64,000 nt of DNA from positions 17,840-81,839 of the forward strand of contig DVIS01000031.1 of assembly GCA_018711135.1 (NCBI GenBank), read 5' to 3'. Below are positions 21,642 through 26,826 of this stretch, one piece after another. Below the pieces are notes generated by a model, which saw only the letters and a program-made list of their open reading frames with translations, did not search any database and was not told the DNA's origin. This stretch comes from Candidatus Onthousia faecavium (GTDB lineage Bacteria > Bacillota_I > Bacilli_A > RF39 > UBA660). Within the stretch, counting starts at the first letter, position 1. Each line of letters opens with the position of its first letter. The translations under genes and the position numbers were made by a program.

Positions 21642-22097
21642 CTAAGCTCTTTCAAGTTTCTTAGACTCTTTATTATTTTTTTCTTTCTCTTTAAACATAA
21701 ATAGTATATCAGCAATTGCTAAACCATAAAGCATAATCTTAATATAAGCTACAAAGTTATCAAAATAATTAAAATCAACTCCATAACCATATTTTCCATT
21801 CAAAACCATGTTAGTATCAAAAATTGCTCTATAGCAAACAAAAATAATAGTTCCTAACACTAAACAACAAGTTAAATTATAAAATAAATTTTTTGTAATT
21901 CCAGTCTGTTTAAACAACATATTAATAATAAATATAATCAAAAGTACAACAAAAGGAATCAACTCTGGTAAAACACTAACTATACTTTTCTCTAAACGCA
22001 TATTCATTCTTACAAAAATAAATAGTGTCAAACCAAAAGCTGCTATAAAAAGAAGAAATTTAAGCCCATAAAATAATATATTAAATATTTTCTTCAT
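21642..22097 (-). CDS. small polytopic membrane protein (island gene 7)
   Basis: 151 aa, about 4 TM segments; start overlaps the stop of the upstream island gene. Confidence 0.35.
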   Translation of the reverse strand: MKKIFNILFYGLKFLLFIAAFGLTLFIFVRMNMRLEKSIVSVLPELIPFVVLLIIFIINMLFKQTGITKNLFYNLTCCLVLGTIIFVCYRAIFDTNMVLNGKYGYGVDFNYFDNFVAYIKIMLYGLAIADILFMFKEKEKNNKESKKLERA

Positions 22098-22098
22098 C

Positions 22099-22788
22099 TT
22101 AACCTCCTATTACAATATCCTTATACCAATTAGATATTTCTACAATAAGGTCTAAAGTATATTGGTAATTATTCATTGTATCAACATAACTATCTTCAAC
22201 TATATCAAAAAAATTTATTTTATTAACATTTGTACTAAAATAATAATGATCTGAGTTTTCTAAATTGTTTTGAACATAATTAGTTGAATTCAATAAATTA
22301 TTAATACTTAATTTAACATATGGCTCTATAACATTAAAATTAGGTAAAGTACTAACAGTATCTGTACTAAACATTGAATTTATTTGCATCGCTACACAAT
22401 CATTTAAAACAATATTTCTAAAATCTCTAGTAAAATTATAAGTATCTTGAATGTCAATTGTATCTAAATCAAAATATCTCATCATCTCATCACTTTCAAG
22501 TATCTCTAAACATGCTTCCATACGCAACTTTGCATTATTCAAACCATAAATATTTATAGATCCTGTGTAACTATCTTGATCATAAACAGCAATATTATTA
22601 CGAATCATATTTATTTTATTTTCTACACTAACCTTACTAGTATCATTATAAGCACTTACATCAGCTGTATCAGCTAACTCATCCATATGATAAAAATTTA
22701 AGAAAAGTAAGAAAAAAGAAAATCCAAAAATAAGTCCGGTAATCGTATAAGCAAACATACTAGCATACTCTAATAAAATCTTTTTCAT
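22099..22788 (-). CDS. N-terminally membrane-anchored protein (island gene 6)
   Basis: 229 aa with a single N-terminal TM; 4-bp start/stop overlap with the gene upstream. Confidence 0.35.
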   Translation of the reverse strand: MKKILLEYASMFAYTITGLIFGFSFFLLFLNFYHMDELADTADVSAYNDTSKVSVENKINMIRNNIAVYDQDSYTGSINIYGLNNAKLRMEACLEILESDEMMRYFDLDTIDIQDTYNFTRDFRNIVLNDCVAMQINSMFSTDTVSTLPNFNVIEPYVKLSINNLLNSTNYVQNNLENSDHYYFSTNVNKINFFDIVEDSYVDTMNNYQYTLDLIVEISNWYKDIVIGG

Positions 22789-23327
22789 TCTTCTTCCTCC
22801 ATCTGTATTTTAATTTCAAAATGATAATATTTATTCTGCCATTCTGTATTTTGGGCATCCTCTGCGACATAAATTCGCAATTGATAATTATTAACTTGTG
22901 AAGGAGCAATACTTCTAGTATCTAAAATATTATTTTTAATTTCATCTAAATCTCCACTCTTAATAACTTTACCATTCAATGACAACTGATATCTTAACTG
23001 ATTTCTTGATAATAGTTCTTTACTACTATAAGTTGCATCATCACTAATAATACTATCTTCTAGCAAGACATTATATACACTATCATTATCACTAAAATTA
23101 GTAACTTTAAATTCATAAGGTTTCAAACTTAAAGCTGTATTATCATCTATTGGAATTAAACCACTTTCATCTAAAACATTATTTGTATTACTTATCTCTA
23201 TATTTATTAAACTTGAATTATTGATTGATCCTTCACCATAAAAGAATCGATACCATAATATAGAGGTAGTAAAAATAAAGACAAACAAGGCAACCCCAGC
23301 TAAAACCAATAAAATAAACTTTTTCAT
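22785..23327 (-). CDS. divergent membrane-anchored paralog of the TasA-like proteins (island gene 5)
   Basis: N-terminal TM without the SipW-cognate motif. C-terminal NYQLRIYV...YYHFEIKIQ echoes YRLRMW...YKLRVNVYG of the four secreted paralogs. Confidence 0.4.
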   Translation of the reverse strand: MKKFILLVLAGVALFVFIFTTSILWYRFFYGEGSINNSSLINIEISNTNNVLDESGLIPIDDNTALSLKPYEFKVTNFSDNDSVYNVLLEDSIISDDATYSSKELLSRNQLRYQLSLNGKVIKSGDLDEIKNNILDTRSIAPSQVNNYQLRIYVAEDAQNTEWQNKYYHFEIKIQMEEEE

Positions 23328-24016
23328 TTTTTAAATCTCCCTTCTTTCTTTTGCGGCCCAGAAACTAACTTTTTACTTTTTTCTATCTTCTTATCATTTT
23401 TTTTCTTTTTTTCACCTCTATCATTGTTTTTTAAAGTCTTAAACAATTTATATATATCATAACCAATAATCGCTATAGCAGGAACAATAATAATCGCTAC
23501 CCAACCAAGTATTGTACTCAAATAATATTGAATATATCCAATCTTTGGAATTCTAAACATTACCTTACCATATATATCGTCAAAATTAATTCGCGATGAA
23601 TCCTGAGTATTATTATTATCCCCTTTTGTTGTATATAAATAATCTCCCGTACTAGTTCTTTCTATATCAACAATTCTATGTGTAACTGTAATACCAGAAT
23701 ATCTATAATCCGTAGAATTAAAAGTAATAATATCCCCTTTTTGTAATTCATCAGGACTATCTACTCTTTTTGTTACTACAACATCTAACACATTAATCGA
23801 AGGTACCATACTAGGACTAACAATTGTATAAGCTGACAGTAATTGTCTTTTACCATTGCCAGCTTTAATATTATGCCTACTATCTATAAAATTAATTACA
23901 AACGCCAAAAACACTATAACCATTATTAAACAGATAGAATACATCAAAACTGTCGTTATAAAATGGAAAATCTTTCTCGTTGTTAATAACCAATTTTTCT
24001 TAGAAGTTTTCTCCAT
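23324..24016 (-). CDS. sipW: SipW-type (ER/archaeal-type) signal peptidase I
   Basis: IVSPSMVPS Ser box, QKGDIITF, VTHRIVD His box, TKGDNN; N- and C-terminal TM plus a Lys-rich tail. Confidence 0.7.
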   Translation of the reverse strand: MEKTSKKNWLLTTRKIFHFITTVLMYSICLIMVIVFLAFVINFIDSRHNIKAGNGKRQLLSAYTIVSPSMVPSINVLDVVVTKRVDSPDELQKGDIITFNSTDYRYSGITVTHRIVDIERTSTGDYLYTTKGDNNNTQDSSRINFDDIYGKVMFRIPKIGYIQYYLSTILGWVAIIIVPAIAIIGYDIYKLFKTLKNNDRGEKKKKNDKKIEKSKKLVSGPQKKEGRFKK

Positions 24017-24069
24017 AAAGCTTTCACCCTCTTATTATTCTTATCTAAACACAAGAAAAAGAATTAGTA

Positions 24070-25407: not shown

Positions 25408-25451
25408 TTTTATCCTCCTAATCTAAAAGAAAACTGTTAATAATAAAATAA

Positions 25452-26063
25452 TTATTGAGCTGCTGCTGCTCCATAAACATTTACTCTTAATTTATAAGTA
25501 CCACCGGAACTACCGTCAGAATAATTTTCATCCACCCACATTCTTAAACGATAACTATTTGTTATAGAACTAGTAAAAGTACCTCTTGTCAAAACATATT
25601 GATTACTAGGAGCTTTAGAAAGTTCAGAACTTGTGGTTTTCTCTAATTTAGACATAAGAGTTGGTGCTAAAACTGCCTCTTCTATATTATTATTAACTTT
25701 AGTTAAATATACTTTCACCGCAGAATCAGAAGCTGTACTACCATCATTAACCGCTGTAATAGCATAATTAATTGTTGTATTTCCTGTCCCTACAATTTCT
25801 GCTTCCACTGTAAAATCAAATGTGTTATTATTTCCAGTCAAAGCCATACCTGTTGCATCATTTATTGGCAAAGCATTCATTAAATTAATACCATTTTGAG
25901 GCTCGTTATAACTCATATTAATAACCCCCGTTGTTATAGTATTATTTTTAGAGCCAGTTTTACTATACTGAAAAGCTGCAAATGAAACACCAAAAACAAC
26001 TAAAACTAGAACCACAAGACCAACAAGAGATAAAACAATCCCTTTAGATTTATTATTCTCCAT
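25452..26063 (-). CDS. TasA/CalY-like secreted protein with SipW-cognate signal peptide (paralog 2)
   Basis: VFGVSFAAFQYSK, NGINLMNALPIND, FDFTV, YRLRMWVDE...YKLRVNVYG; start ATG 26063 has a GGAGG RBS. Confidence 0.5.
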   Translation of the reverse strand: MENNKSKGIVLSLVGLVVLVLVVFGVSFAAFQYSKTGSKNNTITTGVINMSYNEPQNGINLMNALPINDATGMALTGNNNTFDFTVEAEIVGTGNTTINYAITAVNDGSTASDSAVKVYLTKVNNNIEEAVLAPTLMSKLEKTTSSELSKAPSNQYVLTRGTFTSSITNSYRLRMWVDENYSDGSSGGTYKLRVNVYGAAAAQ

Positions 26064-26124
26064 CAAAGATAACCTCCTCATTAGTATAATGATAACACAA
26101 AAGAAGAAAGAAATACAACATTTT

Positions 26125-26161
26125 TAAAACAAAAAGAAAAAGTGTCAGAGATTAGACACTT
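26125..26161 (-). terminator. intrinsic terminator after paralog 1
   Basis: hairpin AAGTGTCagagattaGACACTT followed by TTTCTTTTTG on the minus strand. Confidence 0.5.
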
Positions 26162-26190
26162 TCTTAATTCAGTTTATCTGTTACTTAAAA

Positions 26191-26826
26191 TTATTGAGCA
26201 TCAGCTTGACCATAAACGCGTACTCTTAACTTGTAAGTTTCACTAGTTGTAGGTGCAGTAGCGCTTCCATCAATCCACATTCTTAAACGATAACTATCAG
26301 AGTTACTAGCGCCAGAATAAGTACCATTAGCTAATACATAGTCATCAGCTGTGTTAGGTGCACCAGTAGTAGCAGAAACTGTGTTTGAAGCTGGTAAAGT
26401 ATTTAAAACAGCTGGACTATCTGATGTATTACCAGTAGCAGTATCATCAGTATCAGTTAAATAAACTTTAACAGTAGAATCAGTAATAAAAGTATTACTA
26501 TTATTACTATCTTCTGGAGCTGCAATTATTGCATAATTAATTGTAGCATTACCAGTTACACTAGCTGTAACAGTAAAATCAAAAACATTATCTTCACCAG
26601 TTAAAGCCTTACCTTCTGTATCACTCATAGGTAAAGCATCAGTCAAATTAATACCATTAGTATCCTCTGTATAACTCATTGTAATTGAACCAGTAGTAAT
26701 GGTATTAACTTGAGTTCCTGTATCAGTATAACTGAATGCTGCAAATGATACTCCCACTACAGCTACAACTAAAATTGCTACACCAAGCACTGATAATAAA
26801 ACTTGTTTAGAATTATTATCTTTCAT
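26191..26826 (-). CDS. TasA/CalY-like secreted protein with SipW-cognate signal peptide (paralog 1; Thr/Ser/Ala-rich, GC-richer codons)
   Basis: VVGVSFAAFSYTD, NGINLTDALPMSD, FDFTV, YRLRMWIDG...YKLRVRVYG; own RBS GGAGG, own terminator. Confidence 0.5.
   Translation of the reverse strand: MKDNNSKQVLLSVLGVAILVVAVVGVSFAAFSYTDTGTQVNTITTGSITMSYTEDTNGINLTDALPMSDTEGKALTGEDNVFDFTVTASVTGNATINYAIIAAPEDSNNSNTFITDSTVKVYLTDTDDTATGNTSDSPAVLNTLPASNTVSATTGAPNTADDYVLANGTYSGASNSDSYRLRMWIDGSATAPTTSETYKLRVRVYGQADAQ

Follow-up and report, generated by a model that had tools for sequence, protein, structure and literature searches.

In the tapA-sipW-tasA locus of B. subtilis (8AUR; PMC9674648, PMC10151520), a dedicated SipW-type signal peptidase is encoded beside its substrates, and a donor-strand fibre model with SipW cleavage has been published for TasA (PMC9674648). 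The sipW-bsaA-bsaB-bsaC locus of C. perfringens combines sipW with more than one remote TasA-like protein; in the model for BsaA, subunits tethered by their signal peptides undergo donor-strand exchange and are then cleaved by SipW, and the oligomers are membrane-associated (PMC11580942). Similarly, the B. cereus sipW-tasA-calY system with CapP/BC1280 (PMC4292775; bioRxiv 10.1101/2024.02.27.582368) has one SipW, at least two paralogous fibre proteins and an extra lineage-specific accessory factor, and the archaeal AbpA/AbpB pili and CanA/CanX cannulae (PMC9245690; bioRxiv 10.1101/2024.12.30.630787) are N-terminal donor-strand polymers of jellyroll proteins processed by signal peptidase I. Here, we analyzed a related type of locus, namely an island of eight consecutive minus-strand genes that fill positions 21642–26826 in the open reading frame (ORF) list of a 64-kb stretch of DNA (the window) from Candidatus Onthousia faecavium, an uncultured spore-forming gut bacterium. 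The island is conserved, and it encodes four paralogs (P1–P4), a SipW-type signal peptidase, a divergent paralog (G6) and two further membrane proteins (G7 and G8), which may together form a SipW-processed surface fibre system.

As in B. subtilis, the peptidase gene lies beside those of its likely substrates, and the subunits share with TasA a predicted beta-sandwich as well as an A|AF site, with the following N..(T/A)G(T)(L/I).(L/M) in register. In contrast to TasA, similarity is undetectable past ∼30 mature residues, and the core measures ∼150 aa and lacks TasA's helical insertions. Moreover, where the B. subtilis locus has a single subunit and TapA, TapA is absent here and we encountered 2–7 paralogs, an anchored paralog (G6) and the G7 and G8 proteins, none of which (G6, G7, G8) has a counterpart in the Bsa system. 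A von Willebrand A protein and an adjacent sortase, both features of the Bsa system, are missing from the island. The B. cereus paralogs differ from those of the island in being clear PF12389 members, their accessory proteins were unrelated to G7 and G8 in the searches run, and the archaeal loci lack a dedicated peptidase. Both B. cereus (PMC4292775) and C. perfringens (PMC11580942) are already known to carry SipW operons that encode at least two TasA-like proteins, so the principle is not novel, and the initial annotation of this DNA, which spoke of a system of a kind not described, went too far. The novelty lies in a very large subunit family that has no name and that current family models are not sensitive enough to detect, in the conservation of an anchored paralog, in two membrane partners specific to the lineage, and in the presence of the subunits' N-terminal module on many adhesin-like proteins.

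To place the island in its phylogenetic context, we scanned one genome per species, which yielded 211 matching stretches, and retained 76 loci. These 76 all come from uncultured gut Bacilli, 'Tenericutes' or mislabelled metagenome-assembled genomes (MAGs), and Candidatus Onthousia species, and the nearest relative (L001) is 88–97% identical throughout. The order TatD, 3D-domain protein, 2–7 paralogs, SipW, G6, G7, G8, KsgA, YabG, Veg, SpoVG was observed in ∼50–60 loci by tblastn and ORF classification. Among the 52 complete loci, which come from many species and are defined as those holding both the upstream flank and SipW, the paralogs were genomically paired with sipW in every case (52/52), and their number varied, four being the commonest (28 loci), followed by three (11), five (7), two (3), six (2) and seven (1). 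Because the same order and the same flanks recur across related genomes, the island is old and stably kept in this lineage, the count of subunit genes varying from locus to locus. The question that the initial annotation had raised, whether the arrangement recurs next to ksgA in relatives, is thereby answered, as chance does not explain the same arrangement and flanks in 52 complete loci. All of the genes it had described were found on the minus strand at 21642–26826, in the position where, judged by the local gene order from our searches, Bacillus carries rnmV; its count of seven has to be raised to eight (four paralogs, SipW and three more), as its own text in fact lists.

The peptidase (24016–23324, minus strand, 230 aa) carries one N-terminal and one C-terminal hydrophobic segment, giving two transmembrane (TM) segments, and a basic C-terminal tail. 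Its score on TIGR02228, which models archaeal/ER-type signal peptidase I, was 96.7 bits (cutoff 51.85), and the Bacillus SipW equivalog NF046067 gave 100.4 bits, below the cutoff of 190. Judged by these scores, it is the same type of enzyme as Bacillus SipW and lies outside the Bacillus ortholog group. The boxes SPSMVPS, GDIITF, THRIVD and KGDNN, by which the initial annotation had recognized it, are all present, and SPSM, GDIITF, THR and GDNN are conserved across 62 SipW orthologs. The protein thus displays Ser, His and Asp boxes of the Ser-His and not the Ser-Lys type, and we take the roles of these residues to be those of B. subtilis SipW. Taken together, these results bear out the assignment as a SipW-type peptidase.

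The four genes upstream of sipW encode P1 (26826–26191, 211 aa), P2 (ORF 26081–25452, 209 aa), P3 (25407–24799, 202 aa) and P4 (24705–24070, 211 aa), all on the minus strand and recognized as ORFs and by paralog alignment, each with one hydrophobic segment only, which is N-terminal and ∼19–20 residues long. For P2, the true start is probably the ATG at 26063 and not 26081, since it is preceded by the ribosome-binding site GAGGAGG and the resulting 203-aa protein matches a 203-aa homolog (P0001). P1, which we predict to be a beta-sandwich subunit with a cleavable signal peptide, carries a Thr/Ala/Ser-rich variable loop, and P4 represents a distinct conserved paralog type that immediately precedes sipW in most related loci. 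With pairwise identities of 33–50% and the mature-domain motifs quoted in the initial annotation common to all four, P1–P4 are true paralogs; no further paralogs were found elsewhere in the window.

Directly after the hydrophobic stretch, the paralogs share a putative processing site. Across 268 island paralogs from related genomes, of which 248 were ungapped at this site, Ser occupied position −3 in 236/248 and Ala position −1 in 232/248, followed by A/T/V and then F/I/V, and the commonest motifs were GVSFAAF (93), GISFAAF (25) and GVSYAAI (17). The signal-peptide pattern VVGVS[FY]AA[FI].Y[TS] given earlier is exact for P1 and P3, but P2 reads VFGVSFAAFQYS and P4 VVGVSFATVTYT; the broader observation, of a SipW gene next to several paralogs with a conserved S-[FY]-A|A-F site at the end of their signal peptides, was confirmed. 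The best-conserved stretch of the paralogs lies just after the site (..Y..G...N.I.TG.I.M.Y.E..NGI...A.P). Further conserved strands are FDF, Y.I.A, V[KR].YL and YRLRMW, and a poorly conserved stretch lies between the last two. Two other classes of surface protein were also considered. Cleavage of type IV pilins, which have class III signal peptides, precedes the hydrophobic helix, at G/A|F..E, in contrast to the site following the hydrophobic stretch seen here, and Pilin_N gave sub-threshold matches in only 3/90 diverse members; P1–P4 likewise do not qualify as LPXTG proteins, their hydrophobic segment being N-terminal only.

Similar to BsaA, the family has a near-invariant Asn in the N-terminal strand and a near-invariant downstream Glu (N47 and E60, P2 numbering), and their order along the chain matches that of the Asn and Glu in the isopeptide triad of BsaA. 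Unlike in BsaA, no Lys is invariant: the K79 position holds K in 196, M in 42 and R in 21 sequences, the K123 position K in 246 and R in 18, and P2 and P3 lack K79, which P1 and P4 carry. A family-wide BsaA-like isopeptide lock is therefore not supported, and some of the subunits may possess a covalent lock.

Translationally downstream of the peptidase, G6 (23327–22785, minus strand, 180 aa) aligned with the paralogs over 170 columns (hhalign 98.3%, E 1.7e-14) and is, as judged from this alignment, a true but distant paralog of P1–P4. It retains the N-terminal TM segment and lacks the peptidase site, as had been noted for the fifth, divergent paralog: among 60 orthologs, the position aligned to the −1 Ala is Leu in 41/60 and position +1 is Trp in 59/60. 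Given these bulky residues and the −3/−1 rule, cleavage is not expected, and G6 should escape type I signal peptidase and stay in the membrane. We propose that it acts as a membrane anchor or terminator subunit. Subunits of this kind are known from other pili, namely Mfa2/FimB of type V pili, PapH of chaperone-usher pili and the basal pilins of sortase pili. For G6 we suggest a comparable logic, in which a maturation-blocked paralog ends growth and anchors the fibre; the resemblance is one of analogy only, as those subunits belong to other protein families and other envelopes. The two remaining genes encode G7 (22788–22099, minus strand, 229 aa), with a single N-terminal TM segment and a predicted extracytoplasmic all-helical domain, and G8 (22097–21642, minus strand, 151 aa), a membrane protein with four predicted TM segments and a charged tail at its C-terminus, in line with the earlier description of two further membrane proteins. 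Both were rejected as subunit paralogs (hhalign E 0.25 and 0.26), and neither matched a family in Pfam, NCBIfam or further searches. Overall, neither single proteins nor the 90 diverse members, the consensus or two profiles yielded a usable family for P1–P4, G6, G7 or G8 when run against Pfam, NCBIfam and PDB sequences.

An exhaustive profile search of 1.84 billion representatives retrieved 4890 proteins (clusters at 50% identity) at E ≤ 1e-3 and 2156 at E ≤ 1e-10, and the database names of family members were all 'hypothetical' or lacking. Among the best 150 members, 61 are 300–1743 aa long and carry the module, that is, the shared signal peptide, candidate donor strand and beta-sandwich, at their N-terminus with the cleavage motif intact. 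Behind the module come Big_2, Listeria-Bacteroides repeat (Flg_new), cadherin-like or DUF6273 domains. None of these 61 showed a second TM/hydrophobic segment or an LPXTG-like C-terminus. The two long-member genes that we inspected were both solo, with no peptidase nearby, and one MAG encodes at least five long module proteins besides its island. Many long members end in a shared C-terminal motif, [GV]RP[VA][VI].L......[IV].G.G[TS]...P[YF].L, which corresponds to the end of DUF6273 (carriers in related genomes include P0150, P0153, P0161, P0168, P0174, P0183, P0203, P0216 and P0220), and this domain of unknown function seems to be cargo that the module often carries.

These observations suggest a model in which the island encodes a donor-strand-type surface fibre system that is processed by SipW, anchored by the uncleavable G6, and works like the TasA and BsaA systems, a reading that we prefer and hold to be about evenly balanced between right and wrong. 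Sec would export P1–P4, whose long signal peptides would keep them in the membrane, and SipW would cut them after S-[FY]-A, as the conserved site and the gene linkage suggest. The freed N-terminal segment, AF.Y...G...NTITTG.I.M.Y.E, with its alternating hydrophobics, would then enter the beta-sandwich of a neighbouring subunit as donor strand, so that P1–P4 would polymerize into a linear fibre. G6, its peptidase site destroyed, would stay in the membrane as basal anchor or terminator. For G7 and G8, strict co-occurrence and translational coupling point to a part in assembly, possibly as a platform formed by lineage-specific membrane partners, and long module proteins without any other anchor might attach to or enter the fibre through their module.

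Several results weigh against this reading. At E ≤ 1, none of PF12389, NF046066 and TIGR04088 matched P1–P4 or the family consensus; the 90 diverse members gave only sub-threshold matches to PF12389 (2/90) and NF046066 (5/90), and TIGR04088, the model of the SipW-dependent signal, was also missing from their top families. Profile searches of the PDB missed TasA, and a specific fold or hidden Markov model (HMM) match to a fibre subunit was not found. When the signal peptides were removed, the profile-profile comparison with TasA gave a P of 0.053, with the register unchanged. Lastly, the G7 model was unstable, with one of five models confident and fold matches to generic helical bundles. The initial annotation had the mature domain follow the TasA/CalY (camelysin, M73) arrangement, which cannot be upheld in view of the silent family models and of a likeness limited to the signal peptide and ∼30 mature residues; as judged by these searches, membership in the TasA/camelysin family is not established.

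What weak likeness there is, is nevertheless specific. Against a 117-sequence TasA profile (the TasA sequence and its mature N-terminus, A28, having been checked against PDB 8AUR), hhalign aligned 60 columns at E 2e-4 to 5e-4 and a probability of 32–46%, in comparison to the 97% HHpred probability of AbpA to PF12389. The alignment covers the signal peptide and first strands and places family FA|AF on TasA WA|AF, with N..TG[TS][IL].[ML]...N..P following in register. In a specificity control, the unfiltered TasA HMM was run over the 1139 ORFs of the 76 loci, and the paralogs, which make up 23% of these ORFs, accounted for 59 of the top 60 hits, the other families with an N-terminal TM segment (G6, G7, G8, SipW, 3D protein) for one. 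The AlphaFold model of P2 (m1916017da7e9; 34-sequence alignment) has a mean pLDDT of 72 and a beta-sandwich core with block means of 85–97, and its residues 24–56 (pLDDT <50) are compatible with a donor strand but are not evidence for one. In Foldseek searches against the PDB, this model retrieved generic jellyrolls and carbohydrate-binding modules with TM-scores of 0.2–0.35, AbpA (7ueg_A) ranking 16th (E 9e-3) among capsid and carbohydrate-binding jellyrolls. The predicted fold is thus compatible with, and not diagnostic of, a TasA-type subunit. On this evidence, the family would at best be a remote relative of TasA that shares its processing site and donor-strand region, and the likeness may also have arisen by convergence on an N-terminus recognized by SipW.

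The principal alternative, which we regard as a serious though clearly less probable contender, is that SipW processes P1–P4 as secreted or surface proteins which do not polymerize and could serve as a coat, an S-layer-like cover or released binders, the shared N-terminal module then being only an export and processing cassette with a stalk domain. The missing match to a fibre subunit speaks for it, as does the fact that the module also precedes many passenger domains unrelated to one another, encoded by solo genes at a distance from SipW, and the variable loop and varying copy number would fit any exposed antigen. On the other hand, anchor-less passengers would simply be lost once cleaved, a conserved uncleavable paralog that is translationally coupled to sipW would be left without an obvious role, and conservation peaks in the first 25 mature residues, an unusual pattern if they served only as a linker. 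One may also ask whether these proteins are cleaved at all. The hydrophobic stretch of ∼19–20 residues is long enough to span the membrane and TIGR04088 is silent, so that the N-terminal segment could be an uncleaved signal anchor, with the proteins membrane-tethered and SipW acting on other substrates or in regulation. We consider this improbable, as the −3 Ser and −1 Ala are near-invariant, a conserved motif directly follows the hydrophobic stretch, the site is in register with the proven TasA cleavage site and lost specifically in G6, and the gene linkage to SipW is strict.

Two further proposals concern function. The paralogs could be camelysin-like (M73) metalloproteases, given a weak N-terminal similarity to PF12389 members as the only lead; an HMM match is absent, and no Cys or His is conserved at ≥70% anywhere in the family, so that a metal-binding motif is unavailable, and we rejected this candidate as very improbable indeed. 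A role as spore-surface or spore-appendage components made during sporulation, which would be compatible with a fibre, was suggested from the gene neighbourhood in the initial annotation. YabG, YabP, YabQ (all above cutoff), Veg, SpoVG and a SpoVT-like gene do lie nearby, and TasA was first described as the spore-associated CotN, the name 'spore coat-associated protein N' persisting in databases. However, the flanks form a conserved origin-proximal housekeeping block (tatD, ksgA, metS, an mfd-size ORF, dnaA), and the position therefore carries little sporulation information; likewise, the promoter-like elements seen in the island are sigma-70-type consensus matches at chance frequency, sporulation sigma-factor promoters not having been examined. 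The case made from gene position is accordingly weak, and we deem a sporulation role unlikely, if slightly less so than uncleaved anchors.

Should the donor-strand fibre reading be correct, TasA-type fibre building would extend to a large unannotated family (4890 clusters at 50% identity) that occurs commonly in uncultured Bacilli of animal and human guts, and a membrane anchor subunit would be built into the fibre system, along with two accessory membrane proteins that are new. It would also suggest how these bacteria display large adhesin-like proteins in the absence of LPXTG signals; sortases have been reported missing from the related orders RFN20 and ML615J-28 (PMC10868615), a link to the present organism that is a lead only. 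Both the loop and the copy number, being variable, would then point to an exposed, host-facing structure. More tentatively, and with a clearly smaller chance of being right, one could envisage a sortase-independent surface-display and pilus system in a lineage of gut Bacilli, made up of a single SipW and the shared module of signal peptide, donor strand and beta-sandwich: P1–P4 would form a shaft with a variable number of subunits and one variable loop, G6 the anchor, G7 and G8 would help assembly, and scattered adhesin-like cargo would be plugged in. Such a system would amount to a Gram-positive equivalent of chaperone-usher or type V pili that draws on a family unnamed in databases.

With respect to gene expression, the statement that the downstream genes are all joined by 4-bp overlaps applies to SipW/G6 and G6/G7, which overlap by ATGA, but not to G7/G8, which lie one base apart, with the G8 ribosome-binding site within the last G7 codons. 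The gaps between P1–P4 measure 44–109 bp. Terminator-like hairpins follow P1 (26137–26164, minus strand, a 10-bp stem and then a T run) and P3 (24768–24789, minus strand, from a consensus scan), and a promoter-like site, TTTACC-17-TACAAT with TG (24733–24761, minus strand, consensus match only), lies ahead of P4-sipW-G6-G7-G8. Because of the hairpins after P1 and P3, three transcription units, P1, P2-P3 and P4-sipW-G6-G7-G8, are likelier than one operon, and the consensus scans thus argue against the single operon-like island of the initial annotation, making three units the probable arrangement. P1 has its own GGAGG ribosome-binding site, an extended −10-like element TGCTATAGT (26861–26853, minus strand) lies ∼25 nt ahead of it, and the G+C content of the gene is 0.32–0.33, compared to ∼0.26 nearby. 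TGCTATAGT, the G+C content and the gene's own hairpin are in keeping with strong and separate expression of a gene for a major subunit, and we consider P1 probably the major and P4 probably a minor subunit. A palindromic hairpin (21635–21652, strand unspecified) spans the G8 stop codon, and a strong promoter-like site for ksgA (21632–21603) comes next.

As to the wider surroundings, the upstream flank consists of TatD and then a 206-aa 3D-domain protein with an N-terminal hydrophobic segment. This protein (26912–27532, minus strand) occupies the 'YabE' position and matched only PF06725 (E 2e-8); B. subtilis YabE also has G5 and DUF348 domains. Its gene is absent in a subset of related loci (e.g. 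L027, L030, L036), where TatD directly precedes the paralogs. Downstream, KsgA is followed by YabG, SpoVG, YabP and YabQ, all above their NCBIfam cutoffs, and by a Veg-like protein with 47.5 bits, below the cutoff of 135. Farther out, we found MetS, a SpoVT-like protein (below cutoff), an mfd-size ORF and a 461-aa ORF (52749–54134, minus strand), which we took to be dnaA from its position alone. The GC skew changes sign at ∼54–55 kb, so that the window spans the replication origin and the island lies ∼30 kb from it, within a conserved housekeeping block; gene orientation flips near the skew switch (52749–55200). Between tatD and metS, an ISAs1-family transposase (28450–29421, minus strand, 237 bits) is surrounded by small ORFs and covers model positions 37–314 of 314, so it may be N-terminally truncated. 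A T-box leader precedes metS (31704–31904, minus strand, 99.2 bits), and a small SRP RNA (43773–43856, minus strand, 52.5 bits) overlaps the mechanically called start of a TadA-like ORF (43284–43835).

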